From positions 1 to 64,000 of the IMG/VR virus record IMGVR_UViG_3300044987_001050: a stretch of 64,000 nucleotides of DNA; one strand, 5' to 3'. A model generated the notes under the pieces. The model worked only from the letters and a program-made list of their open reading frames with translations, did no database searches and had not been told where the DNA came from. The position numbers and the translations under genes are program-made. This document shows positions 37,602-52,396 of this stretch, one piece after another; the stretch's first letter is position 1, and each line of letters starts with the position of its first letter. The DNA comes from a virus.

Positions 37602-38316
37602 ATTTATTTCCAAATGAGTGACACTTCAAGAGGCGGAGACGCCTACATCCCGTCTATGACGTGGGCCTACGCAGCTGAAGAGTTGCGTAGGCTCGCCTCG
37701 CAATTTACAATAGAGCGTAAGCAAGATCTTGAGAACAAGTTCATGTTTCGTATTGTGAGCGTTCAAAAGAAGCGGACTGATAAACCCGCCATCCCAGTGC
37801 ATATAAATTTTGATATGCACACGAAAACGATGCAACAGCAAGAGACCCAAGCGATTCTTTCGACGTTCGATCAACTCGATGCGCTCGTCGAGAAATGCGA
37901 CCGGCTCGAGCATGAGCGCGATCTTTGGAAAGCCGAAGCAGAACGTTGGCGGGAAATCGCCATGACGAAAGAAGACTAATGTGTTTCATCCCGCCGCCTG
38001 CGCCACCTGCACCTCCGTCGCCTCGCAATATAGTTCACTGCCGAGGTTGCAACTCTCTAGTTGATGCTAGCGTCTGGGGAGACCTTTGCTCAATTTGTGT
38101 TGTCACTGGAGGAAAAAGTCCTCCGGCTGTAGAAGAGACTGTCTCACCTGGGTGGCATCCAACATCAATTCAAATAAAAGGTTGGGAACCTACATTACGT
38201 CCACAACGACCACTCCGAACGTCTCGTGAAGTTGTTTGTGAATCGCCTAAGGCGCCGATGTCATTCCAAGAGGAGATGGACGCAGCTCTTGCCTTTAATC
38301 CATTACAAGATTTGAT

Positions 38317-38345
38317 TTTACAACGCACGAAGAATGTGATATAAT
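38317..38345 (+). promoter_or_regulatory. Promoter (TTTACA-N17-TATAAT), likely leaderless mRNA
   Basis: ATG 7 nt after the -10 hexamer. Confidence 0.75.
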
Positions 38346-38352
38346 TACTAAT

Positions 38353-39102
38353 ATGCTACCAATCTATAAAGTTGCCGACATTCGGCAAGCATTCGTTGAA
38401 AAATACCTAAGAGGAGATATCGTAACAAATGACACAGGTTCGTTGTCCGGTGCTGATACAGTCGAGATCCTCGGCGCTTCATTCATTGCTGACGAGTCTG
38501 CAATCTTTGGTGTACCCAACTATCCTTACATCCAAAACGAGATTGATTGGTACATCTCGAAGTCGCTCAACGTGAATGACATTCCTGGCGAGGTGCCTAA
38601 GATCTGGAAGGCGGTTGCTTCTCCTGATGGTCTCATCAACTCGAACTACGGGTACCTCATCTTCTCCAAAGAAAACGGTGCACAGGTTTGCAATGTCATC
38701 GACACGCTATTGCAGTCGCCGTCGTCTCGACGTGCAACAATGATCTACACGCGGCCGACAATGCATGTTGATTTCAACACGAATGGCATGCAAGATTTCG
38801 TTTGCACGAACGCCGTGCAGTACATCATTCGCAACAATCGACTGCACGTGATCGTTCAGATGCGCTCTAACGACGCATGGGCAGGCTTCCGCAATGACCT
38901 GGCTTGGCAACTCTTCGTTCAGAAGTTTGTGCTTTATGCTTTGAATGCGCCACGTTTCAACAGCTTATATGAGCTAGGTGATGTTCATTGGCAGGTGTCA
39001 TCGTTGCACGTCTACCAACGCCAATTCTATTTGCTCGATCACTTCGCGAAGACGGGCGAACACCACATCACGCTCGAAAACTATAACAAGCTTTACAAAT
39101 GA
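38353..39102 (+). CDS. 42: dCMP hydroxymethylase-like protein (T4 gp42 family, thymidylate synthase fold)
   Basis: TVEILGASFIADE, EIDWY, INSNYG, SRRA.MIYTRP.M, DFVCT and MRSND..GFRND (Asp specificity residue as in gp42), SLHVY. Confidence 0.85.
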   Translation: MLPIYKVADIRQAFVEKYLRGDIVTNDTGSLSGADTVEILGASFIADESAIFGVPNYPYIQNEIDWYISKSLNVNDIPGEVPKIWKAVASPDGLINSNYGYLIFSKENGAQVCNVIDTLLQSPSSRRATMIYTRPTMHVDFNTNGMQDFVCTNAVQYIIRNNRLHVIVQMRSNDAWAGFRNDLAWQLFVQKFVLYALNAPRFNSLYELGDVHWQVSSLHVYQRQFYLLDHFAKTGEHHITLENYNKLYK

Positions 39103-39355
39103 ACATGGCTGAACAACATCGTGAAGACATCATCACCAAGGCAGAGGTTGAGGCTGAGCTTGATCAGCTATTAGGCAAGATCAGAAGCGAGCGCCAGCCT
39201 AACACACGCGGAGTTATGCTCCTAACACAATTCCTCGCAGGCCTGATGTTACAGTATGGAAATATTGATCAGTCCAAGCTTGACGCTCACGAGTTTATGT
39301 TTTGGCTTACTCATAATGGCGACGGAACTCTAATCACCCCGGCAATCAAAAACGC

Positions 39356-39625
39356 ATGACAACATATCAAACAATTCAGGAAGTACTTGAGAAGGTAATC
39401 GGCGAAGCTAATACGCCTGAGCTGCGCGCAAAGGTTACGAAAGAACTTGAGGATCGTCTGAAGGAGTGTGTTCGTATCAAAGTCATTTGCGACGAGACTA
39501 CTAATCCGCCGTCAGTGATTTATATGAATGAGTTGCGCGGGATTGTCATTAAGGGAGATGCTAAGAAACCTGAAGAGACACAGTACCGATTCAGGATTAG
39601 TTCAACCGGAATAAATGTTGTATGA
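39356..39625 (+). CDS. Stand-alone tail-sheath C-terminal-like fragment
   Basis: IGEANTPELR...VICDETTNPPSVIYMNEL resembles gp18 FE.N....R...V.CDETNN.P.VI..NE. Confidence 0.55.
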   Translation: MTTYQTIQEVLEKVIGEANTPELRAKVTKELEDRLKECVRIKVICDETTNPPSVIYMNELRGIVIKGDAKKPEETQYRFRISSTGINVV

Positions 39626-40110
39626 TAACACTTGAAAACATTAACAAGCAAGACGCGTGTAAGAACCTGCTCGAGTCTCCAGCACCTATCGTTGTTGGCC
39701 GCCTAATCGATGATATCCGCGCGTACATTTCGTTCGTGGACGCGCTTACTAAGCAAGTAAGGATTCATCCTATTGATGAAGACGATCTGAACGAACTAAT
39801 CGACAAACACATACCTTCATGAAGATGGCATCCTTAATAGAAACTCGCGAGCAGAAAAAGATCTGCTCATTGATAAACGAACTCGAAGAAATCCTTTTCA
39901 AGCATGTTGATTCGCCTGGCGTAGACATAACAGACCTCGAGATACCAAATCAACTTGTAAGACATGTAGCTCGTCAGATGTTGTTTCATACAAAGGCTTT
40001 TCCTGGCGTTCATGATCTCGACTATTCTCGTCTTGGCGTGCTAGCAATAACTCCGCCCAACTTCTCGATCAACTATTACACCACCTGGGCCTTCCAAGAA
40101 ATTTACGACA

Positions 40111-40497
40111 ATGCTGTTTAAGAAAGGTGATCCTATTGCGGTTGACTTCGATGGAACTTGCGTAACACACGAATATCCGAAGGTCGGTCGATTCATCGGT
40201 GCACAGAAAGTGTTGCATCGTATTGTTGCTGAGGGCGGTAAGCTTATCTTATGGACAATGCGAAGCGGCGAACATCTCGATGATGCGCTTGCTTGGTTTG
40301 ACGAGAATGATATTCCGCTCTACGGTATTCAGGTAAACCCAGGCCAGTACACATGGACGACTAGTCCTAAGGCGTATGCAAAGATTTACATCGATGATGC
40401 CGCGCTTGGTTGTCCCATGAAGCCAGGCTTTAAAGATGAACGTCCTTTCGTTGACTGGGACGCAGTAGAACTCTTACTATTCGGAAACAATGCATAA
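40111..40497 (+). CDS. HAD phosphatase (BT0820-like)
   Basis: IAVDFDGT, LILWTMR and K.YA.IYIDD motifs. Confidence 0.82.
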   Translation: MLFKKGDPIAVDFDGTCVTHEYPKVGRFIGAQKVLHRIVAEGGKLILWTMRSGEHLDDALAWFDENDIPLYGIQVNPGQYTWTTSPKAYAKIYIDDAALGCPMKPGFKDERPFVDWDAVELLLFGNNA

Positions 40498-40825
40498 AGA
40501 AGACCTCCAAGAAATCGTTGACTTGTCCGATATGTTAACGACCGACATCGAAAGTTTCATCGGCGAGTTCAACGATGAACTAACGAGAAGTCGACTCACG
40601 GAAATCATGCGAATGTACTTCGTTAGAGTTCGCGCGATAACACGTCTTCCGATTGACATCAACAAGATTGGGTTGTGCAACATCAGTAAGATAGCGCCAA
40701 CTATTGGATCTGACTTTGGTTTACCTACAGACAGATCTGAAAACGAAATAAGAGCTAATGCATACACCCAAAGTGCCTTTCGAGATATCTCCCGCATTAT
40801 TGAAGACAATCAAGTTTCGTCCTGA
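40490..40825 (+). CDS. Hypothetical protein
   Basis: Contains FIGEFNDELTR, weakly sheath-like. Confidence 0.45.
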   Translation: MHKEDLQEIVDLSDMLTTDIESFIGEFNDELTRSRLTEIMRMYFVRVRAITRLPIDINKIGLCNISKIAPTIGSDFGLPTDRSENEIRANAYTQSAFRDISRIIEDNQVSS

Positions 40826-41285
40826 TGGGTACGTGGACAATTGGTTCTCGAACATGTTACCATTCGATCACCCGCTTGTCGTTGACGGAATAACATACTT
40901 CTCGGTCGAGAATTTTTACCAAGCTTCAAAGATTGAGGCATACCGGCGCGAGTTGCGCGTCGAGATTGCAAGCATGAGCCCGCCTAAGTCGAAGGCATGC
41001 TTCCGGAGGGAACCTGACAAGTTTGTCGTGATGCAGGATTGGACGACGGGCCGCAAGCTCCGAACAATGCAGTATGCGCTCAACTGGAAGTTCTTGCCAG
41101 GCACGTCATGGCACGAGAAGCTTATGCAAACCCAAGCCGATCCTATCATTGAGTTCAACAACTGGAACGACACGTTCTGGGGCTGGGACATCAGGAAGGA
41201 GACAGGCTCAAATCATTTAGGCAGACTACTGATGGAAATGCGCGCGCGGTTTGCTCAAAGCACGCTCGACTCTTTCATGTCATAA
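40758..41285 (+). CDS. Second NADAR-family protein (start may be TTG at 40800)
   Basis: WFSN, SVENFYQASK, KF, E.NNWNDTFWG and G.NHLGRLLM motifs; ends STLDSFMS. Confidence 0.85.
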   Translation: MHTPKVPFEISPALLKTIKFRPDGYVDNWFSNMLPFDHPLVVDGITYFSVENFYQASKIEAYRRELRVEIASMSPPKSKACFRREPDKFVVMQDWTTGRKLRTMQYALNWKFLPGTSWHEKLMQTQADPIIEFNNWNDTFWGWDIRKETGSNHLGRLLMEMRARFAQSTLDSFMS

Positions 41286-41290
41286 TGTTA

Positions 41291-41319
41291 TTTACATATG
41301 ACGTCCAATAGTGTATAAT
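41291..41319 (+). promoter_or_regulatory. Promoter (TTTACA-N17-TATAAT) heading the modification operon
   Basis: ATG 7 nt after the -10 hexamer. Confidence 0.75.
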
Positions 41320-41326
41320 CATAAAA

Positions 41327-41695
41327 ATGGAAATACTCAGCGTTAACACAGTAAAAGAAACCGAAGCGATGCGCGTCCTTGACGAGTGCCGTGCAACGAT
41401 GGAAAAGAAGGGGAACGATTATCAGAATCCGCACTCGCGTATTCGACAAGCGGACTATTATCCTGCAGGCGTTGCGACGATACTTGACATCGTGCATGCC
41501 AAGGTTCTCCGCATGAGGTCCGTCATCGAAGCGATGGAGAACGATCCTAACTACGTCCCCAACTTCGAATCGTTCGAAGACTCATGCAAGGATGCAATCA
41601 ATTACCTTGCCTTCGGTGTCTCATACTCTCGCGGCAAGATTGATGGCCAAGATCCTTCGCGAGATTTTCTTAACCGCATGACACGCAAAGCATGA
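41327..41695 (+). CDS. Nucleotide-modification-associated all-alpha protein (DUF1599-like, possible dNTP pyrophosphatase)
   Basis: KKGNDYQ...KVLR...EDSCKDAINY pattern. Confidence 0.65.
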   Translation: MEILSVNTVKETEAMRVLDECRATMEKKGNDYQNPHSRIRQADYYPAGVATILDIVHAKVLRMRSVIEAMENDPNYVPNFESFEDSCKDAINYLAFGVSYSRGKIDGQDPSRDFLNRMTRKA

Positions 41696-42204
41696 ACATA
41701 ACATGTCCTTTCAGGCACGTCGTCACCGACGTTGATGGTGTCCTCACGGACGGTTCATTTCATTATTCCCCTGACGGTAAAACGCACAAGGTCTTTGGGC
41801 CGCATGATTCTGACGGTGTCAAGATCTTTCGTCGTTTGGGAATTGCTGTCTATGCGATCTCGGCGGATAAGCGTGGGTTTCCAATCACGCTAGCGAGGAT
41901 GAATGACATGAATGTCCCCATTGAATATGTTACTGAGAACAACCGATATCGGTTTGTCGCAGATAAGTTTGTGTTAGGCGATACATGCTTCATCGGTGAT
42001 GGCATTTTCGACGCGGCCCTCCTCGCGGATTGTTCATTCTCGTTCTCTCCATCGAACGCGCCTGACTTCGTTCGACAATATGCTAAGCACAACTGCAAAG
42101 CCCGCGGCGGTAACGGTGTCCTTCTTGAAGCAGCACTATATACTATCAGCACCTGGTTCCCCAATGAACTTGATGCCCTACTTAAAGACCTAAGACTACT
42201 ATGA
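41692..42204 (+). CDS. KdsC-like HAD sugar-phosphate phosphatase
   Basis: DVDGVLTDG, KVF..HD, FIGDGIFD and GGNG motifs. Confidence 0.85.
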   Translation: MNITCPFRHVVTDVDGVLTDGSFHYSPDGKTHKVFGPHDSDGVKIFRRLGIAVYAISADKRGFPITLARMNDMNVPIEYVTENNRYRFVADKFVLGDTCFIGDGIFDAALLADCSFSFSPSNAPDFVRQYAKHNCKARGGNGVLLEAALYTISTWFPNELDALLKDLRLL

Positions 42205-42725
42205 AGATCATCCTCGACGAAATGACTCGAATGGGCGACGCCCTCGACACAAAAGAAGTTCAGACATACGTTAACTCTCTCGCGTATAGGTTAATATCCA
42301 AGCCAGCTATCGTAGGTCTCGCGGCGGGTCGTATGGGATACGCGTTGCGAGCATTCATCATGCGCCTCAATCACATGGGTTTCAACGCAAGCATGATAGG
42401 CGACACGAACGTCCCTCTTATCACCGCGAATGATATCGTGCTCGTGAACAGTTCATCAGGTGAAACTCCGTCGATCCTTTTGTATGTTAAGCAAGCCCGT
42501 GACGCAGGTTCGCGTGTTTACACGACGACGTGCAACCCGATGTCGTCCATCGGCAGACTATCACATGAAGTTATTCCTCTCCCGAAAATCAATTCGGTTC
42601 AGCTGATGAAGTCGGCTTACGAACAATTCTCGATGCTGTTATATGATCACATCGTCATGGAGCTTTCATCAAAACTAAACCTAGACCCTGAGTTCACGAC
42701 TCATAATCACTCAATCCTCGAATAA
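42201..42725 (+). CDS. SIS-domain sugar-phosphate isomerase (HxlB/PHI-like)
   Basis: AGRMG...F.MRL.H.G, SSSGET, EQ and terminal HSILE motifs. Confidence 0.85.
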   Translation: MKIILDEMTRMGDALDTKEVQTYVNSLAYRLISKPAIVGLAAGRMGYALRAFIMRLNHMGFNASMIGDTNVPLITANDIVLVNSSSGETPSILLYVKQARDAGSRVYTTTCNPMSSIGRLSHEVIPLPKINSVQLMKSAYEQFSMLLYDHIVMELSSKLNLDPEFTTHNHSILE

Positions 42726-43417
42726 TGAAACCTATCTTCGGCGCATCAGTTATATGCATGGATCACCTCAACCTCGAACGCGATGTTCGGTTGTGTGCTG
42801 AACTCGGAGTCGACTACCTCCACCTCGACGCAATGGACGGCCATGCCGTTCCTCGTTATGGTGTCTATCCTGAGCAGGTTGCACGCATCGCGACCATCAC
42901 TGACCTCCCGCTTGACCTTCACCTCATGGTGTCGGATGTCGAGTTCGCGATTAGTCAGTTCGATATCTCGAAGGTCAGGACAGTAACATTCCACTTGAAC
43001 GGTAATGAAGGGCGAGCGCTTTACCTCATGGACAAGATTCGTGAAAAAGGAGCACGGCCAGGCCTTGTCATGAACCTTGACATGCCGCTCTACGCGTTGC
43101 ACCGCTTGATTGACAACGGAGAACTTGACCTCGTGATGTTCATGGGTATTCATCCTGGTGTACTCGTTCAAACGGCACGTCCTGAAACAGTTACTGATGA
43201 CATATTCGGCTTCCTCTCGGTTTATCCTAACGTCGAGATCCAAATCGACGGCGCTCTTAACTTCGACACCTTCGAACAATTTAGGAACGACGGCGTTGAT
43301 TCATTCGTCGGCGGGACGGGCACTATATATAAGAACGTAGATCGCAACACAAACTGGGAAACCCAAGAAGCGATCATCCGCACGAACATGCAACGCATCA
43401 AATCATTTCTCCAGTAA
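42725..43417 (+). CDS. rpe: Ribulose-phosphate 3-epimerase family protein (Rpe/AlsE-like)
   Basis: SVICMD, HLDAMDGHAVP, DLHLMV, TFH, MGIHPG, IQIDG and VGGT motifs. Confidence 0.85.
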   Translation: MKPIFGASVICMDHLNLERDVRLCAELGVDYLHLDAMDGHAVPRYGVYPEQVARIATITDLPLDLHLMVSDVEFAISQFDISKVRTVTFHLNGNEGRALYLMDKIREKGARPGLVMNLDMPLYALHRLIDNGELDLVMFMGIHPGVLVQTARPETVTDDIFGFLSVYPNVEIQIDGALNFDTFEQFRNDGVDSFVGGTGTIYKNVDRNTNWETQEAIIRTNMQRIKSFLQ

Positions 43418-45000
43418 TGTATAAAGTCGTAATCCCATCTGCCGGGTTAGGTTCACGCGTCGCCGCGCATTCGCCTAACATCAACAAAGCACTAATCACG
43501 ATTGGCAACAAGCCTGTCATCTCGCACGTCATCGACAAGTTCAAGAAGGACGTCGAGATCGTTGTGTTATTAGGTCATCACGGATCTTACGTAAGGCAAT
43601 CGCTCGAGGCGATCTATCCTGACCGTAAGATCTCTTTCGTTGACGTCGAGCTTTATCAAGGTGAAGGATCCGGACTTGGTCTTACGTTAGGATGCGCCGA
43701 ACATCTGTTGCAGTGCCCATTCATATTCATCTCGAACGACACAATCATTCCTGATGAAGTCATTGATCTTGACCCTAACATCACGGGCAATTGGATGGCT
43801 TACTATACCGCGACAAAAGCTGACTCGTTTAACACGTCGGTCTACCGCACCGTCGAGATTGACAACGGTGTTGTGACAAACATCAACCCGAAGGGAATCG
43901 TATGCCCTAACATTTATGTTGGTCTATGCGGTGTCAAAGATTATGACGGTTTCTGGAAGAGCATGGACAACCCGCGTGCGATTCCTGTCGGCGAATCATA
44001 CGGGCTTAAGTTTCTCAATAACATCAAAGCGATTCCTGTCCCATCATGGTGCGACACCGGGAACGTCGAATCACTTCTTAAGACGCGTGAACTGCTAGAG
44101 ACTCACGAGTTCAACATCGTTCACAAGAATGATGAGGCTATCTGGTTTTACGATAACCGCGTGATCAAGTTCAGTGTTGACGATAAGTTCATTGCTGATC
44201 GAGTCAAGCGCCTTCAAGGATTGGGCAATCAAATCTTTCCTTCACTGATCCACGTTGACAAGAACCTCTACGTCTATAACCGAATCGTCGGCGATGTTGT
44301 AAGCAAGACACTCAATGGGACTAACGTCATCGACATCCTCGACTTCGCGAAGAAGGAGATGTGGGATAACACTTCGAATGCTACGCCTGAACTCGTCGAG
44401 GCGTGTTATTCGTTCTACCGTGATAAGACGTTCAAGCGTGTCCAACAATTCTTCGACGTCTTTGAGTGTGTTGACACGGTGGACACGATTAACGGCGTGA
44501 CGATTCCGCCAATGTATGTGCTGCTTAATCGCGTTGATTGGCGCGACCTATGTGATCATCCGCATGCCTCGAAGTATCATGGCGACTTCCACAACGAAAA
44601 CATTCTAGTCACGCCGTCCGGCAATCCAATGCTGATCGACTGGCGCCAAAACTTTGGGTATGATAACCTAGACATCGGCGATGCATACTATGACTTCGCT
44701 AAGTTCATGCACGGGCTCATTGTTTCTCACCATCAGATTTTGTGCAACCACTTTACGGTCGAGCGAGATTCCTCGAATAACATCACGATAGATATTTTAC
44801 GGCCACACCGTTTAGTCGAAGCTGAGGAGACGTTCGTGAAGTGGCTGAAGGAGAATAATTATGACGCATCGCGCGTGAGATTGCTTACCGCACTAATCTT
44901 CCTGAACATCGCAGCGCTTCATGAGTATCCTTACTCGCTATACCTATTCTATCTTGGCAAACATCTACTGAACAAATACCTAGTCTCGACACTATCATGA
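43417..45000 (+). CDS. Sugar-phosphate nucleotidyltransferase fused to an APH/choline-kinase-like kinase
   Basis: N-terminal VIPSAGLGSR..NKAL and WCDTG; C-terminal HGDFHNENI, LIDWRQ and GDAYYDFAK. Confidence 0.85.
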   Translation: MYKVVIPSAGLGSRVAAHSPNINKALITIGNKPVISHVIDKFKKDVEIVVLLGHHGSYVRQSLEAIYPDRKISFVDVELYQGEGSGLGLTLGCAEHLLQCPFIFISNDTIIPDEVIDLDPNITGNWMAYYTATKADSFNTSVYRTVEIDNGVVTNINPKGIVCPNIYVGLCGVKDYDGFWKSMDNPRAIPVGESYGLKFLNNIKAIPVPSWCDTGNVESLLKTRELLETHEFNIVHKNDEAIWFYDNRVIKFSVDDKFIADRVKRLQGLGNQIFPSLIHVDKNLYVYNRIVGDVVSKTLNGTNVIDILDFAKKEMWDNTSNATPELVEACYSFYRDKTFKRVQQFFDVFECVDTVDTINGVTIPPMYVLLNRVDWRDLCDHPHASKYHGDFHNENILVTPSGNPMLIDWRQNFGYDNLDIGDAYYDFAKFMHGLIVSHHQILCNHFTVERDSSNNITIDILRPHRLVEAEETFVKWLKENNYDASRVRLLTALIFLNIAALHEYPYSLYLFYLGKHLLNKYLVSTLS

Positions 45001-46238
45001 ATATTCTAATCGGCAAAACAGGCCGCTCTATTTACTTCAACTCGAACAGTCGTGGGTTCACGGCCGGTGATGAAGAGGCGCCTATGTTATATCGGCTCCT
45101 CGCGAAAAGAAATCCCGAGCATACGTTCTATCTTATCGGCAGGTCCGACATTACACGGATGCGTGACAAGGAGACGACGGGTTCGCTATCATCCTTCTTC
45201 GATGAAGTTGAGGAGGAAGAAATCGACGAAGGTTTGCCGCCTAACATAATCAACCTCTTCGACGACTGGACGAACAAGGTTACGATTGATGATCATGTTT
45301 GGCTCGAGGAAAAGATTCGTCGACTGGACCTGAAGTTCGATGCAGGTGTTATTTTCATCGGACCTACGCCAGCCGTGGGAATTCCTAATGTAGGCATTGA
45401 ACGCCTTGACGGAAAAGGAAAGGCGAAGACACTGGAGATGTTTCAAAAGTACTATGCTGGCATTGTGCATACGCTCAATTGGACGAACACGCCGTTCATC
45501 TCAATATGTTCAGACCCTAAGTATGCTCCGCAATACGCACGCGATATCATCAATGATGAACGGGTAGTGCTTAGTCAAATCAACCAAACATACGCGCGCA
45601 AACGAATCAAGTCATACGAGGAGTCGTTGACGTTGCGTGACGTCAAGCTGAAGTACATTTACTCCGGAATCGAAACTGTCTTCCTGCTTGGCGAGAAAAA
45701 GATTGAATGGCTTGACCGTCCAAAGACGAACAAGTTTGTCATTGGCCTTAATGGCGGTCTATCTCGTGATGAGTTCATCAAGGATTGGATTCTCAAGGGT
45801 GATACGACGGGCATTAAGGTTTATGGCGAATGGGCGGACGAGTTCACGACGGGTTGGCCCGATGTCTTTGAGAACAAGAGTATCCGGTCGGTCGAGGACG
45901 TGTTCCTCAATTCGCGTTACACGATCATTGCGCCTCCGCATAAACCAACAGGAAACTTCGTAACTCAAAAGTTCTGGAAGATGATTTACTATGGCATCAT
46001 CCCGTTCTTCCATCCAAATTACGATACCGACAACATCTTCAACGTGCCAGCTATCCTTCGAGTTAAGACACCCAAGGATATGTGGGAACGAATCAAATTC
46101 CTTGACGAGAATCCCGAGACATATAAGCTCGTGCAGAAGCGGCTGTATGACATGCTTGACGACAGCTACTTCAACGGAGACTTCCTTTACAACGTCGTCA
46201 AGACGAACCTCGAGCAGTACACCGGCGTCGTTCTATAA
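44997..46238 (+). CDS. Putative DNA glycosyltransferase (GT-B, beta-glucosyltransferase-like)
   Basis: Directly follows the NDP-sugar genes; DP motif, VYGEW and T.KFW..I..GIIPF..P.YD GT-B C-terminal pattern. Confidence 0.6.
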   Translation: MNILIGKTGRSIYFNSNSRGFTAGDEEAPMLYRLLAKRNPEHTFYLIGRSDITRMRDKETTGSLSSFFDEVEEEEIDEGLPPNIINLFDDWTNKVTIDDHVWLEEKIRRLDLKFDAGVIFIGPTPAVGIPNVGIERLDGKGKAKTLEMFQKYYAGIVHTLNWTNTPFISICSDPKYAPQYARDIINDERVVLSQINQTYARKRIKSYEESLTLRDVKLKYIYSGIETVFLLGEKKIEWLDRPKTNKFVIGLNGGLSRDEFIKDWILKGDTTGIKVYGEWADEFTTGWPDVFENKSIRSVEDVFLNSRYTIIAPPHKPTGNFVTQKFWKMIYYGIIPFFHPNYDTDNIFNVPAILRVKTPKDMWERIKFLDENPETYKLVQKRLYDMLDDSYFNGDFLYNVVKTNLEQYTGVVL

Positions 46239-46258
46239 CCTATAAATCAAATCAGCCA

Positions 46259-47509
46259 ATGAATAAACAAACCAAAATTACATACGCGCCAATCATCCCG
46301 CTAATCGGTGGTGAACCTCTGGGTGTTATGACAGCACTCAATGGGCAACTGCCTGAGTATGTGTTATCATATTCGCCTTTCGCCGACAACGATTCGCACT
46401 ACATCAAATATCTCCGTGATGTTAAGGGATTCACGGGTGACTATGCTGTCATCGATGATCCTGCATTCGAGAACTATGTTCCAAAGCAGGTTGATGTTGT
46501 CATGAGCACTTGCCCGTGTGCAGGCTTGTCGTCGTTGTCCGTTGCATCGTCAGCTGATTCGCCCGTGAACGAATGGCTTTACACCTCGGCTGAGTATGTG
46601 TTATCTACCGTGAAGCCCAAGGTCTTCTGGGGAGAAAACGCGCCGCGTCTATTCTCATCGTTCGGTAAGCCCGTTGCTGATAAGCTTCATGCAATCGGTA
46701 AGAAGTACGGATATTCGCTCAACCTTTACTACACGGAGTCTAAGCTGCATGGCCTTTGCCAGAAGCGTCCGCGTACATTCTACTTCTTCACACAATCCGA
46801 AGTTGCTCCTATCTTCAAAACCTGGAGACGCGATCTCAATCCTGTTGAGGACATCCTCAAGAAGAAGACACTCAAGAAGGATCCAATGAATGTTCTCATC
46901 AACAAAGCGGACCCAATGGATAACCCATGGGTTGCATACGCGGTTGAGAAGGTCGGCGGCGGAACACTCAAAGGTGTTTATGATTACATCGAAGAAACGC
47001 AGAACCTCATCAACGGTGCGGACGGCGACTTCGGTCAGTCACTCCCAGAGGTTGCTGATTGGATGGACGCACAGGACAAACCTACGTTCTCGCATGTCGC
47101 GAAGCGCGCACGCGCAATGCAAGGCAAGCTTGATGACGGCAAAGGTTATTGGTCGCACGGCGTCACGATGTCGAAGGGTGCTATCCCATCGTTGATCGGC
47201 GCAATGCCAGGTTCGTTAATCAATCCATTCACAGGGACATTCCTAACACTTCGTGATTGTCTTCGAATCATGGGTATGCCCGAGGACTTCAATCTCGCGT
47301 CCGAGAATCCTGTTTCGAAGTCTAACCACATTTGTCAGAACGTGCCGGTGACAACTGCGCGTGACATGATGGACGGCATTCTTCAATACTTGAACGACGA
47401 TTGCGAGTTCTCTAACTCCGATTACATCAAGCAGTCTAACCGAAACTTCTCGGTCATCTCAGTCAACGCCCAAAAGGAAACTACGGCGTCCCTTGATTCC
47501 TTCTTCTAA
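46259..47509 (+). CDS. Atypical C5-cytosine methyltransferase-like protein
   Basis: Motif IV CPCAGLS, motif VI GENAP and motif VIII QKRPRTF. Motif I is divergent (IPLIGG). Ends SLDSFF. Confidence 0.7.
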   Translation: MNKQTKITYAPIIPLIGGEPLGVMTALNGQLPEYVLSYSPFADNDSHYIKYLRDVKGFTGDYAVIDDPAFENYVPKQVDVVMSTCPCAGLSSLSVASSADSPVNEWLYTSAEYVLSTVKPKVFWGENAPRLFSSFGKPVADKLHAIGKKYGYSLNLYYTESKLHGLCQKRPRTFYFFTQSEVAPIFKTWRRDLNPVEDILKKKTLKKDPMNVLINKADPMDNPWVAYAVEKVGGGTLKGVYDYIEETQNLINGADGDFGQSLPEVADWMDAQDKPTFSHVAKRARAMQGKLDDGKGYWSHGVTMSKGAIPSLIGAMPGSLINPFTGTFLTLRDCLRIMGMPEDFNLASENPVSKSNHICQNVPVTTARDMMDGILQYLNDDCEFSNSDYIKQSNRNFSVISVNAQKETTASLDSFF

Positions 47510-47531
47510 TACACACACCACACAATAACAT

Positions 47532-48608
47532 ATGTCAGCAATACTCGACAAACTCAAGAAGAACTCCCGCGTCAAATCCGCGGAGATCCTATGTGACTCA
47601 CCTTTCTTTGGAAAGGTTGAGTTGACGACAACGCCAGTGCCGATGATCAACGTCGCGCTCTCAGGCTCACTTAACGGTGGTCTCGCTTCAGGCCTTACTG
47701 TTCTTGCAGGTCCATCCAAACACTTCAAGACAAGCTATGCGTTGCTTATGGCCGCGGCATATCTGAACAAGCACAAGGACGCATGTCTGATGTTCTATGA
47801 TTCGGAATTCGGTTCGCCTCAAGCATACTTCGAATCGTTCGGGATTGATCCTGCGCGTGTTCTACACATTCCTATCAAGGATGTCGAGGAGCTGAAGTTC
47901 GACCTTGTCAACCAACTTGAAAACCTTGATCGGAAAGACAAGGTCATTATCATCATCGACTCAATTGGTAACCTTGCATCGAAGAAGGAGTTGGAGGACG
48001 CAATCGACGCGAAGTCGGTCACGGACATGTCGCGTGCAAAGTCGATCAAAGGCTTGTTCCGTATGGTCACGCCGTTCCTCACGATCAAGGATGTTCCTTG
48101 CTTGGCCGTGAACCACACATATCAAGAGATGGGCTTGTTCCCGAAAGCAGTCGTCTCAGGTGGTACTGGCATCTATTACTCCGCATCCAACATTTGGATC
48201 GTCGGTCGTCAACAAGACAAGGTAGGTACTGAGGTTCAAGGTTATCACTTCGTCATCAATGTCGAGAAGAGCCGGTTCGTCAAGGAGAAGTCCAAGATTC
48301 CGATTTCGGTTTCATGGGACGGCGGCATCGACAAGTACTCAGGTTTGCTTGACCTTGCGTTGGAAGCAGGTTTCATTCAGAAGCCATCCGCCCAATTCTG
48401 TCAGTTGCTTGACTTTGCGACCGGAGAGTTTGGTACTGCGAAGGTTCGTCCTAAGGCAATCCCTGATTCGTACTTTGCTGAACTGGTCAACTATCAACCC
48501 TTCGCGGACTACATCACGAACAAGTACACGATCGGACTTCGTCAAATGATCTCAGACGACTCAGACGAAGTTGGTCCTGACACGGATGAGGAGGACGAAG
48601 ATGCCTAA
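47532..48608 (+). CDS. uvsX: UvsX RecA-like recombinase
   Basis: NVALSG, AGPSKHFKT, YDSEFG, IDSIGNLASKKE and GGTGIYYSA motifs. Confidence 0.95.
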   Translation: MSAILDKLKKNSRVKSAEILCDSPFFGKVELTTTPVPMINVALSGSLNGGLASGLTVLAGPSKHFKTSYALLMAAAYLNKHKDACLMFYDSEFGSPQAYFESFGIDPARVLHIPIKDVEELKFDLVNQLENLDRKDKVIIIIDSIGNLASKKELEDAIDAKSVTDMSRAKSIKGLFRMVTPFLTIKDVPCLAVNHTYQEMGLFPKAVVSGGTGIYYSASNIWIVGRQQDKVGTEVQGYHFVINVEKSRFVKEKSKIPISVSWDGGIDKYSGLLDLALEAGFIQKPSAQFCQLLDFATGEFGTAKVRPKAIPDSYFAELVNYQPFADYITNKYTIGLRQMISDDSDEVGPDTDEEDEDA

Positions 48609-48891
48609 CACCAAGATAGTCCAAGTCGACATCGAATTCTCGCGTGTCAGATGGTTAGGCGAACGCACTAATGAAGTTCATCAACTTATCCGAGATGAAC
48701 TTATCAAGTACAGTGCTGAGCGTGGTAGGCAAGCGCCTACCCAGGTCATGGTTGAGGTGTCGCCTAACCTAGCAAACGAGTTGAGCTTTGGTGACGCAAC
48801 CAACTTCAACTGTAGCCTGCTAGGCGTGCCTGTTAGGTTCTCCGTGAATTGGACACTCATCAGGAATTTCATTCGACTAACCATTTCTTGA
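48601..48891 (+). CDS. Hypothetical protein (weak capsid A-domain-like pattern)
   Basis: VSP.LA.EL...LLGVPV. Confidence 0.4.
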   Translation: MPNTKIVQVDIEFSRVRWLGERTNEVHQLIRDELIKYSAERGRQAPTQVMVEVSPNLANELSFGDATNFNCSLLGVPVRFSVNWTLIRNFIRLTIS

Positions 48892-48896
48892 TTTAC

Positions 48897-49232
48897 ATGG
48901 AAGAGGAAATAGATTACAATTTTGTAGAACACGCCGATTCGACTCTTTACTCGATTCGATTGATGACCGGCAATTGGGCTGGTGTTATTTACACTTATGG
49001 GCGTGTTTCTATTAGGGAGGATCGGCGCAACGACACTGCAGTCCTCTCATTTGATTACCGCATCGAAGATGTAGGTGACACCTCATTCGCACCAGAAGAT
49101 CTGGAGACGAGTGATGCGTTTAGAAATATGATAGGTGATATCCTTGCCGATATCCTATCAAGTGAAGAAATACATATAGGCAAAGATGCAACCAAATTTA
49201 CAGACGATAATCGTAAAGGGACTACTCCATGA
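48897..49232 (+). CDS. gp40-like protein between uvsX and gene 41
   Basis: Syntenic position; IRL..G...GVIYTYG.V...LSFDY...IGDIL pattern. Confidence 0.55.
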   Translation: MEEEIDYNFVEHADSTLYSIRLMTGNWAGVIYTYGRVSIREDRRNDTAVLSFDYRIEDVGDTSFAPEDLETSDAFRNMIGDILADILSSEEIHIGKDATKFTDDNRKGTTP

Positions 49233-50577
49233 TGAGACATTCTGCCGTAAGGCGTTACCACACATAAAGCCTGAATACTTTGAGGGCGAGCATCGAGTTG
49301 TTTATGATCTGATTCTTAAGTTCATTTCCAAGTATAACAAGCTGCCTAACTCTGCAGTACTTGACATTGAATTCCGCGCATCAAATCATAACGTAGGCGC
49401 TGACACGATCAACGTCGCGAAACTAATCTCCGACGTTGATACGCCAGAGATTGTTGAGTATGATTGGTTAGTTGACTCGACCGAGAAGTGGTGTAAGGAC
49501 CGTGCAGTCTACATCGCAATCATGGAGTCGATTCAGATCATCGACGGCAAGGCTGAAGGTAAGGCGGAGGGGATGATTCCTGACATCCTCTCGAAGGCGC
49601 TTGCAGTAACATTCGACACTAACGTAGGCCACGACTACCTCGAGGACGCGGAGAAGCGGTATGATTACTATCACCGCGTCGAGGATAAGATTGCGTTCGA
49701 CATCGACATGTTGAACAAGATCACGAACGGCGGTGTATCGCGCAAGACATTGAACATCATTCTTGCAGGTACTGCCGTGGGTAAGTCGCTCGCTATGTGT
49801 CACCTCGCGGCTGCGGCGATGGCCCAAGGTCGTAGTGTGTTATACATCACGATGGAAATGGCGGAGGAAAAGATCGCTGAACGTAATGATGCTAACCTCT
49901 TCGACATCAACATTGATCAGATCACGAACCTCTCGAAGGAGATGTTCAATCACAAGATCAAAGGCATTGCTGCAAAGACACACGGCAAGCTGATCATCAA
50001 GGAATATCCAACAGGAGCTGCTCATGCCGGACACTTCCGGGCGCTCCTGATGGAACTGAAGCTGAAGAAGAACTTCGTTCCTGACATCATCTTCATCGAC
50101 TACCTGAACATTTGTGCATCGTCTCGAATCAAAGGTGGAGCTGAAGGCGGTACATACTCGCTCATCAAGTCGATTGCTGAAGAGCTTCGCGGTTTGGCGG
50201 TCGAGTTCAATGTTCCGATTTGGTCAGCCACGCAGGTCACTCGATCCGGGTATGCCTCGTCCGACGTTGAAATCACGGACACGTCTGAATCATTCGGTCT
50301 TCCTGCAACAGCGGACTTGATGATCGCCTTGATGTCAACTGAACAACTCGAGAAGATGGGTCAGATCATGATTAAGCAACTCAAGAATCGTTACAATGAT
50401 GTAGGCAAGTACAAGCGATTCACGGTCGGTGTTGATCGAGCTAAGATGCGGTTGTATGACATTGCTGACCCAATGGCTAACATCGCGAACGAGTCGTCCT
50501 CGCAATCAAATGTCGTGCAGACACCGTTCAGCGCAGGTAAGCCCGAACGAAAACAGTTCACTGGATTCAAGACATGA
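49186..50577 (+). CDS. 41: Replicative DNA helicase (T4 gp41, DnaB-like)
   Basis: LAGTAVGKS, MEMAEEKIAER, IDYLNIC, AEELRGLAVE, SESFGLPATAD and LKNRY motifs. Confidence 0.95.
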   Translation: MQPNLQTIIVKGLLHDETFCRKALPHIKPEYFEGEHRVVYDLILKFISKYNKLPNSAVLDIEFRASNHNVGADTINVAKLISDVDTPEIVEYDWLVDSTEKWCKDRAVYIAIMESIQIIDGKAEGKAEGMIPDILSKALAVTFDTNVGHDYLEDAEKRYDYYHRVEDKIAFDIDMLNKITNGGVSRKTLNIILAGTAVGKSLAMCHLAAAAMAQGRSVLYITMEMAEEKIAERNDANLFDINIDQITNLSKEMFNHKIKGIAAKTHGKLIIKEYPTGAAHAGHFRALLMELKLKKNFVPDIIFIDYLNICASSRIKGGAEGGTYSLIKSIAEELRGLAVEFNVPIWSATQVTRSGYASSDVEITDTSESFGLPATADLMIALMSTEQLEKMGQIMIKQLKNRYNDVGKYKRFTVGVDRAKMRLYDIADPMANIANESSSQSNVVQTPFSAGKPERKQFTGFKT

Positions 50578-50685
50578 GCGAAATAGTTATCATACATGGA
50601 CGTAAGTGGGTGATGACGGATATCCCAGCGCCTGACTATTCGAAGACTATCTTCCGCCCGCATCCATTCAAATTCAAATACAGAT

Positions 50686-51030
50686 ATGCAAGTAAAACTA
50701 ATGACACTGAACGAGCCGAACCTAAATGGGCTGACCTACTCAACGGATGTCGTAAAGAAGGCGATTGATGAATACATCGCAAGAGGCAAGCCTATGCTAA
50801 TTCAGCGTGCATTCAGCAGGGAAGCAGGCGTGAATCTTGAGAACGTATGCGGCGAAGTCAAAGACATTCAGTTCAACGACTTCGAAATGTCTGGCACGGT
50901 CCATCTGTTTCCAAATGATGAGGCCCTTCGCGCTTTACATGTTAGGCCCGCCTTTGTTGGTCGTATAGAAGAAGGCATGGTAAAAGACATCGAACTACTC
51001 TCATTCAACTTTACAGCTGACCCGGCATGA
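50686..51030 (+). CDS. Degenerate prohead-protease (gp21)-like protein
   Basis: NLNG..Y, VNLENV and LLSF.FTADPA match gp21; the catalytic-region SH and SSRG are replaced by CG and RPAF. Confidence 0.55.
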   Translation: MQVKLMTLNEPNLNGLTYSTDVVKKAIDEYIARGKPMLIQRAFSREAGVNLENVCGEVKDIQFNDFEMSGTVHLFPNDEALRALHVRPAFVGRIEEGMVKDIELLSFNFTADPA

Positions 51031-51568
51031 AGAAGATAAGACGATGGGTAATCGGCCCCTGCTCAATATGTGGAAACGAGTTTGAGCGGTACGAGCCGAG
51101 ACGCGAATGTAGTTACTGTAACCCCTTTGCCCAAACCAATGAGCCTGTCATACAACCGCCACAAAGATCAGGTCGCGCTCGAGCGCGCGCGAACACGCGT
51201 TAAGACCGAAAACAATAAGTGGGAACAAGGATCATCTCCTAATATAGAACGCATCGAGAAGCGGGCACGACATCTCAAGGATACTCCGACACCATGCTCA
51301 TGCGAGATGTGTCGTAACCCAAGACGATCACGTTGGGCAAACGGAACAAGCAAGCTCACGATGCAAGAAAGAAAAGCTCTTAGTAACATAAACCAAACAG
51401 AACAATGAACGAAAAAGAACAAGCAATCGCCGATAAGTTTCTAAACTCAATTGATTTTGCGAATGTCAATGAAAGGCAGGAGGCAATCTATGTGTATCAG
51501 TCATTCCTCGGTGCTGTCCAAACGCGCCTTCAGATTGAGGCACAAAATATTGAAAACAGAAAGCAAGC

Positions 51569-52396
51569 ATGATCACAACAAAAATCATCGCTGACTCGAT
51601 CTCAACATCAGGCAAACGCATCACGACGTTTGAACTTGAGTATCCTCGGTTCATTCATTCGGAGTTCATGACTCACCGAATGATCTCGAAGAACGCCGCA
51701 TCATCGCGCGCAATTCCTATCGAGACCATGATCAAGCAGGTCACGGAGAATCCAGCATGGCCTGTCTTCTGGGGCAAGAACCAAGCAGGCATGGCTGCAA
51801 CAGAAGAGCTTACTGGAGCTGCTCTGTATAACGCCAAACAGATTTGGATTGAAGCTCGTGATTCAGCGATCTATAACGTAAAAGAAATGGTCAAGCAGGG
51901 TCTGCACAAACAGATTGCTAACCGCATGCTCGAGCCGTGGGCGCACATCAAGGTTGTGGCTACTGCCACTGACTGGGATAACTTCTTCCATCTACGCCGA
52001 CATCCTGCAGCTCAGCCTGAGATTCATGCGCTCGCGGATTCGATGTGGGACCTTTATTCAATCAACACGCCTGACTTGAAGTATGTTGACGAGTACCATC
52101 TTCCGTATGTGTCTGACGAAGACAAGAAGCGGTACACACTTGACGAGTGCATCAAATTGTCTGCATCGTTGTGCGCTCAGGTTTCATACCGTAAGACTGA
52201 TGAGTCACTTGAGAAAGCGCTGTTGATCTATGATCGTTTAGTCGCATCGACGCCAGTCCATGCTTCTCCGTTCGAGCATCAAGCTTCGCCATCATTGCTT
52301 TCGTCTGAGAGATCAGGGAACTTCAATGGTTGGGTTCAGTATCGGCAGTCTCTACCAAAGAATGTATGTAATGTCTACAACGGAATAACTGAATGA
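51569..52396 (+). CDS. thyX: Flavin-dependent thymidylate synthase-like protein
   Basis: PRFIHSEFMTHR..SKNAASSRAIP, HKQIANR.LEP, FFHLR..AQPEI and HASPFEH motifs. Confidence 0.8.
   Translation: MITTKIIADSISTSGKRITTFELEYPRFIHSEFMTHRMISKNAASSRAIPIETMIKQVTENPAWPVFWGKNQAGMAATEELTGAALYNAKQIWIEARDSAIYNVKEMVKQGLHKQIANRMLEPWAHIKVVATATDWDNFFHLRRHPAAQPEIHALADSMWDLYSINTPDLKYVDEYHLPYVSDEDKKRYTLDECIKLSASLCAQVSYRKTDESLEKALLIYDRLVASTPVHASPFEHQASPSLLSSERSGNFNGWVQYRQSLPKNVCNVYNGITE

Follow-up and report, generated by a model that had tools for sequence, protein, structure and literature searches.

Why would a phage carry short, stand-alone copies of its virion proteins among the genes for replication and nucleotide metabolism? 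The question is raised by IMG/VR record IMGVR_UViG_3300044987_001050, a viral record of 83,186 bases at a rated completeness of 47%, of which the first 64 kb (hereafter, the window) were analysed. The record is that of a T4-like phage and carries a UvsX-like recombinase and a gp41-type helicase. A sequence-only reading of the window had singled out four small open reading frames (ORFs), here termed P0001 to P0004, as degenerate fragments of tail sheath (P0001 and, more weakly, P0002), major capsid protein (P0003) and prohead protease (P0004), and had suggested that they could serve as immune decoys. All four were found on the plus strand at the coordinates proposed (Table 1), and the annotation of the neighbouring genes bore out their placement among replication and modification genes. 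Their description as mini-paralogs of structural proteins held for P0001 and P0004 and perhaps for P0002, but not for P0003. We report that P0001 is, judged by its sequence, a free-standing tail-sheath C-terminal domain and that P0004 is a truncated gp21-type prohead protease, each a remote paralog of the virion gene.

Results

P0001 is a stop-bounded ORF too short for a full-length sheath protein, without domains I-III or the N-terminal arm. The PHROG 23 profile ('tail sheath') matched its residues 5-86 with an E-value of 4.5e-5 over profile positions 380-467 of 496. A tblastn search of 50,697 phage records matched 35 of them; among the 30 matches listed, 26 were located in annotated tail-sheath genes and four in unannotated records. 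A hidden Markov model (HMM) of a sheath-end alignment that had been built without P0001 recovered it among all 673 ORFs of the record at an E-value of 2.2e-22. Moreover, a profile of the family of small proteins to which P0001 belongs matched residues 563-636 of T4 gp18 in the PDB (E 5.5e-8) and found the sheath gene in all five complete phage records searched. The proposed likeness to a sheath C-terminus is confirmed. Single-protein searches against the PDB gave chance-level matches only, and word-based homolog searches with P0001 and P0002 returned only near-identical copies.

In T4 gp18, residues 548-631 form two helices and two antiparallel strands that make a common sheet with the gp15 terminator and contact gp3, as described in passages of PMC12929629. 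P0001 is colinear with this domain and shares its two helices, the CDETNNPP-type hairpin and the terminal strands; the loop preceding the first strand is shorter in P0001. The small proteins align colinearly with the final 105 residues of 17 full-length sheaths, up to a few residues from the sheath end. In this alignment N19, C45 and N50 are invariant, D46, E47 and T48 are nearly so, the conserved turn CDETNN(P/T)P is present, and the order of two helices and antiparallel strands matches that of the sheath end. Unlike the gp18 gene, P0001 is encoded in an early-type nucleotide-metabolism operon and not in a tail module, and in the tree it evolves several times faster than the sheath ends.

An exhaustive search of 1.84 billion representative sequences yielded P0001 itself, six small proteins of 84-111 amino acids (aa) and three long repetitive proteins. 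The latter (P0006, P0007 and P0010), with 6-14 matched stretches each, were set aside as repeat-driven without further checks. The seven small proteins share 30-51% identity, with N19, R24, C45, N50 and V64 invariant, and five of the six database homologs are located on contigs of 5-180 kb and hence are not contig-end fragments. Among the loci fetched from IMG/VR there were 217 distinct match ORFs, 15 of them shorter than 250 aa; ten of the 15 were cut by contig ends, and the five complete entries correspond to four distinct ORFs (L223, L230, L188/L267 and L275 in Table 1). A fifth complete case was found in the 735-kb megaphage LR756501. With regard to the Phage_sheath_1C cut-off of 26.9 bits, the L188 and LR756501 ORFs pass (32.9 and 32.5 bits) and the L230 ORF fails (22.8 bits). 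Additional loci with the sheath pattern were considered as sources of small ORFs and rejected: all 52 loci of one set and all 33 of a further one turned out to be full-length or contig-cut sheath genes, and in another set 77 of 79 match ORFs had at least 200 aa while the remaining two were cut at contig ends.

All three small sheath-domain ORFs annotated for their neighbours stand beside replication or nucleotide genes. The L223 ORF follows a primase gene and is flanked by a ThyX-type gene and a ribonucleotide reductase gene, the L230 ORF is located immediately 3' of SbcCD-like genes, and the L188 ORF lies immediately 5' of gp32- and UvsX-like genes. The L223 record, which is 91% complete, also encodes a 710-aa sheath protein 55 kb from the small ORF; the two are 37% identical over the common domain. 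In a tree of ten small and 27 sheath sequences, from which L275 (hairpin only) and the megaphage ORF were left out, eight of the ten small proteins cluster on long branches, and a single clade for all ten was not rejected by the approximately unbiased test (p-AU 0.556).

Several of these loci have features of their own. In L188, a 225-aa 'mini-gp23' (L188:73-750) directly precedes the sheath-domain ORF, upstream of the gp32- and UvsX-like genes; it scores 51.9 bits with Pfam Gp23, and its similarity to T4 gp23 is confined to the N-arm and spine-helix parts. L188 is a second case of structural-protein fragments inside a replication module. The L275 ORF combines the sheath beta-hairpin motif (ITICDETNNPP-type) with an HTH_37 DNA-binding domain (38.4 bits). 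In LR756501 (L322:4100-8030), roughly nine small ORFs, adjacent to one another and otherwise unrelated, all end in a DPYGEE(N/D)W-type acidic tail that resembles a docking or targeting peptide; the sheath C-terminal domain is found in one of these ORFs.

The type member of Pfam DUF7355 is the T4 gene cd.3 (NC_000866 133334-133609; L332:1835-2110), which is conserved across 892 phage records. Its product, a 91-aa early protein of unknown function encoded beside the deoxycytidylate deaminase gene, resembles the small sheath-domain proteins in size, in its nucleotide-metabolism setting and in a start composed of helix, FE-x-D and helix, but lacks the CDETNN motif. Two of the seven small sheath-domain proteins and the L188 ORF gave weak DUF7355 matches (E 0.0028 and 0.0065). 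Kinship between the two groups was not supported, as the profile comparison was not significant (hhalign probability 3.5-4.1%; 5 bits), and they are kept apart here.

For P0004, the signals from the single sequence are weak, with an E-value of 0.086 for PHROG 207 and one tblastn match, which is located in a prohead protease gene. P0004 has five relatives, all of them small (109-145 aa), with 32-84% identity and 23 invariant columns, and one member of this family matches Pfam S77 (E 1.2e-4). The family profile has T4 gp21 (5jbl) as its top PDB match (E 0.014) and finds the protease gene in all five complete records at E-values from 1.5e-12 to 4.4e-5. The relative in locus L016 (phage G004), a 134-aa ORF directly upstream of uvsX, matches 177 phage records; among the 30 matches listed, 25 are in prohead protease, core or scaffold genes, four are in genes annotated as 'hypothetical' and one is in an unannotated record. 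In the Atlas model of P0004 (predicted local distance difference test score, pLDDT, 0.72) all 114 residues align to S77 clusters with a template modelling (TM) score of 0.84.

In the alignment with four proteases, P0004 lacks the first approximately 40 and the last approximately 40 residues of T4 gp21 and ends, like gp21, in the conserved DPSAP-type motif. The three columns of the catalytic triad hold H, S and D in all four proteases and Phe43, Arg87 and Asn108 in P0004. They correspond in T4 gp21 to His85 and Ser140, and to Asp168, which was assigned from the alignment. All six small proteins are substituted at these columns, with Arg in six of six and Phe and Asn in five of six each. The triad type, His-Ser-Asp, is that given in passages of PMC5694885. 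With all three triad positions substituted, P0004 is predicted to be incapable of catalysis; together with the S77 profile matches, this confirms the earlier view of a gp21-like protein without the catalytic residues. The P0004 gene adjoins the gp41 helicase gene, whereas the T4 gp21 gene is located between the portal and capsid genes.

The record of phage G004 carries both its 134-aa pseudo-protease and a normal 220-aa protease, approximately 13 kb apart and 23% identical. Truncated 'cryptic' paralogs of the prohead protease are described in passages of PMC5694885 for phiKZ-related giant phages, namely SPN3US gp117, 201phi2-1 gp206 (145 aa) and PhiPA3 gp143 (136 aa). They resemble the P0004 family in being short (114-145 aa) and presumably inactive protease copies, and coexistence with the real protease is seen here in the G004 relative. 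The cryptic paralogs belong to the S80/phiKZ lineage and are reported there to keep Ser and Asp, whereas the P0004 family is nearest to the T4-type S77 proteases and has all triad columns substituted.

A 64-aa ORF (50574-50768) is coupled to the helicase stop codon by ATGA and overlaps the P0004 start by 83 nucleotides (nt). Since the P0004 start is supported by homologs, either the two genes truly overlap or the 64-aa ORF is no gene.

P0002 had been described as carrying a weaker sheath-like helix, and this stands in a weak form. The sheath-end HMM ranks it second of the 673 ORFs with an E-value of 4.8e-4 (next ORF 0.75), over an alignment limited to residues 12-47, which correspond to the two helices; the hhalign probability is 52%. 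Family matches were found neither in Pfam nor in PHROG, and the only relative is a 99% copy. P0002 is possibly a degenerate second sheath-domain paralog that has kept the helical half only.

The assignment of P0003 to the capsid A-domain was not upheld. No capsid match was obtained in Pfam or PHROG: Pfam Gp23 gave no match in the record at E<=10, whereas both controls responded (T4 gp23 1.6e-122, gp24 9.6e-99), and PHROG 138 did not match P0003 in a search that had no positive control. The pairwise alignment to gp23 residues 337-408 reaches 3.6 bits, and the equivalent gp24 region does not match. There were no homologs in 80 related loci and otherwise only near-identical copies, and the Atlas model is of low confidence with mixed neighbours. 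We found no support for capsid similarity and treat P0003 as unrelated to capsid proteins. The ORF is preceded by a GAGGAGG-type ribosome site and fills the gap from uvsX to the next conserved gene.

P0001 overlaps both neighbouring ORFs by ATGA, and P0002 begins 8 nt within the preceding gene and overlaps the NADAR gene by 68 nt. The region also encodes a sugar-nucleotide-type enzyme and a C5-methylase-like gene. Two sigma-70-like promoter matches, each with 11 of 12 consensus positions, lie on either side of the operon 38353-41285 containing P0001 and P0002, one in each flanking intergenic gap. The TATAAATA late-promoter motif was found at two sites only, 52652 and 58859, away from the small paralogs. 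The early-type setting assumed in the sequence-only reading is supported by these operons headed by sigma-70-like matches, and the arrangement suggests early expression of the small paralogs.

Twenty DNA runs contain the stretch; they come from 19 lake-water or freshwater studies, and 16 of these runs may be its source. The intervals 38272-40722 and 48776-51768 are each spanned, with zero differences, by contigs of other runs, so the gene order is no artefact of a single assembly. Among the nearest relatives in IMG/VR, helicase identity reaches up to 73%. The remaining ORFs of the 83-kb record had no match to genes in the fetched structural loci.

Table 1. Positions and properties of the ORFs, genes and promoter matches considered here (window coordinates unless a locus is named)
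Feature	Position	Strand	Description
P0001	39356..39625	+	89 aa; tail-sheath C-terminal domain copy (by sequence); two helices, beta-hairpin with CDETTNPP motif, terminal strands
P0004	50686..51030	+	114 aa; predicted truncated gp21 (Peptidase S77) pseudo-protease; colinear with gp21 residues 40-174
P0002	40490..40825	+	111 aa; possible degenerate sheath-domain paralog; residues 12-47 resemble two helices only
P0003	48601..48891	+	96 aa; ORFan; tightly packed between uvsX and a conserved small gene
Thymidylate-synthase-family gene	38353..39102	+	Opens operon 38353-41285
NADAR-domain gene	40758..41285	+	Closes operon 38353-41285
UvsX-like recombinase	47532..48608	+	Context gene
gp41-type replicative helicase	49186..50577	+	108 nt upstream of P0004
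Sigma-70-like promoter match	38317..38345	+	11/12; TTTACA, 17 nt, TATAAT; just upstream of operon 38353-41285
Sigma-70-like promoter match	41291..41319	+	11/12; gap ending the P0001/P0002 operon
L223 small sheath-domain ORF			100 aa; complete
L230 small sheath-domain ORF			145 aa; complete
L188/L267 small sheath-domain ORF	L188:728-1336		202 aa; complete
L275 small sheath-domain ORF	L275:9989-10387		132 aa; complete
LR756501 small sheath-domain ORF			146 aa; complete

Discussion

Both small families consist of intact ORFs in the contigs of other phages, and every case examined is placed among replication or nucleotide-metabolism genes. Since such intact relatives exist, and since in two of those phages the small copies coexist with a normal full-length sheath or protease at no more than 37% and 23% identity, respectively, P0001 and P0004 are, by these comparisons, members of families of old accessory paralogs and neither fresh duplicates nor debris. 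Decay of structural genes that had been duplicated or transferred would explain why P0002 retains part of the domain only and why P0002 and P0003 have no relatives beyond near-identical copies. For P0001 and P0004, decay without function is very improbable: ORFs of similar length have stayed intact at 30-51% and 32-84% identity with fixed ends and invariant columns, the residues that replace the triad are themselves conserved, and the genes are tightly packed with ATGA overlaps.

As to function, we favour the view, at an even chance of being right, that P0001 and P0004 are early proteins which mimic interfaces but can neither assemble nor cut, given that each would have kept the interaction surface and lost the means to polymerise or to cleave. 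In the sheath, the C-terminal domain links the subunits to each other and to the tail terminator through beta-sheet augmentation; a free copy should bind the partner strands and compete with sheath polymerisation. Likewise, the pseudo-protease should bind the substrate loops or partners of gp21 without cleaving them. The benefit could lie in control of the phage's own assembly, in masking signals from host sensors or in interference with a competitor.

A number of points weigh against this interpretation. No RNA run is listed as containing the stretch, and the promoter-like sites, which are consensus matches only, are not enriched in the region (27 found, 21.6 +/- 5.0 expected). Purifying selection on the small paralogs is argued from retained ORFs and invariant columns only; the four runs compared over the stretch are near-clonal, with almost no differences from which to derive a ratio of non-synonymous to synonymous polymorphism or substitution (pN/pS or dN/dS). 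Pfam S77 did not match P0004 alone, and Pfam Phage_sheath_1C (PF17482) did not match P0001 at E<=10. Full-length copies, proposed earlier as a check, were found together with small relatives in the records of other phages, whereas the phage's own full-length sheath and protease were not found on the 83-kb record, itself 47% complete. In addition, the small sheath-domain ORFs have no flanking genes in common, hence no conserved functional neighbourhood that would indicate a partner, and the tree with its long branches cannot tell one origin of the small sheath domains from several.

Three other functions have to be weighed against interface mimicry. The small paralogs could regulate the phage's own assembly, the free sheath domain capping or chaperoning monomers against polysheath formation and the pseudo-protease tempering or timing the prohead protease. 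According to passages of PMC3004832, recombinant full-length gp18 forms polysheaths spontaneously, and gp18 1-510, without residues 511-659, cannot polymerise, which makes the C-terminal part a requirement; it is by way of this C-terminal sheet of gp18 that the terminator caps the sheath (passages of PMC12929629). Moreover, the T4 annotation contains a separate protease inhibitor, inh, which makes the control of gp21 a real need. This role is nonetheless improbable, as the genes are in early-type operons far from any late-promoter match and both small paralogs are absent from T4 and from three more of the five complete phage records searched, which argues that there is no general need for them in assembly. 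About as improbable, in our estimate, is that the domains were exapted for a new and unrelated job, for instance as a protein-binding module in the DNA-modification or replication machinery, with the parent fold kept. Consistent with exaptation are the N- and C-terminal extensions fused to the sheath domain in L188 and L230, the HTH_37 fusion in L275, the common acidic C-terminal tail in the megaphage, the long branches in the tree and the constant placement in replication or nucleotide modules. What speaks for retention of the original contact is the CDETNNPP turn, the most conserved sheath motif, which is invariant or nearly so in the small proteins.

The decoy idea from which the analysis started, in which inactive mini-paralogs made early would already occupy the sensors with which the host recognises virion proteins, leaving the genuine late proteins unable to trigger defence, appears to us somewhat less probable still. 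In its favour, the genes are small, fast-evolving and patchily distributed, and the P0001/P0002 operon also carries DNA-modification-type genes and the NADAR gene. Both are functions of a counter-defence type. Other small sheath-domain ORFs, by contrast, adjoin plain replication genes and not known anti-defence genes. T4 gp21 alone suffices to activate the cyclic oligonucleotide-based antiphage signalling system (CBASS) and requires its active site for this, according to passages of PMC12991175, so the link between prohead protease and CBASS drawn in the sequence-only reading is correct, and a dead look-alike would be expected to bind without triggering. In a variant of the idea, the pseudo-protease would shield the protease-sensitive activation loop of CBASS cyclases. 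For the tail sheath no sensor is known: passages of a 2026 Nature paper (PMC13581612) name it only as a possible target of STAND (signal transduction ATPases with numerous domains) proteins, and a host sensor of the sheath is thus hypothetical. The matching passages of a November 2026 review of phage countermeasures (PMC13728456) contain no trigger decoy of this kind. Neither described decoys nor stand-alone sheath domains were found in the article texts searched. Likewise, we found there no earlier account of stand-alone sheath domains as a family, or of how they recur in replication modules, whereas truncated protease paralogs were already known from giant phages.

It is doubtful that tailed phages keep a whole class of early 'trigger mimics', dead mini-paralogs of virion proteins that do not assemble, comprising the sheath end domain, the protease core and, in another phage, a mini major-capsid protein, which would pre-load or shield the host sensors of those proteins or of their activity. 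If true, the clearest example would be a pseudo-protease that guards CBASS cyclases at their protease-sensitive activation loop. Many bacterial defences respond to virion proteins or to the prohead protease, and free-standing inactive copies in the early clusters of several unrelated phages are hence candidate factors for counter-defence or assembly control. Should the function prove to be assembly control, the free sheath 'handshake' domain would still offer a natural tool with which to study or block the polymerisation of contractile sheaths.

Further observations

The conserved small gene between P0003 and the helicase gene (window 48849-49232) is a member of PHROG 3998 (unknown function), and tblastn matched it 30 times in the 80 related loci. 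Its start is probably the ATG at 48898 and not the TTG at 48849, and it stands at the position where T4 has gene 40. A cluster of changes at 48714-48744, near the contig end of one run, was not trusted. In the interior of uvsX (47986-48142), the contigs of two runs (X20 and X17) skip 155 nt; the shorter side comprises only 40 letters, and the likeness is 85%. Other recombinase genes of the metagenome may be the source.

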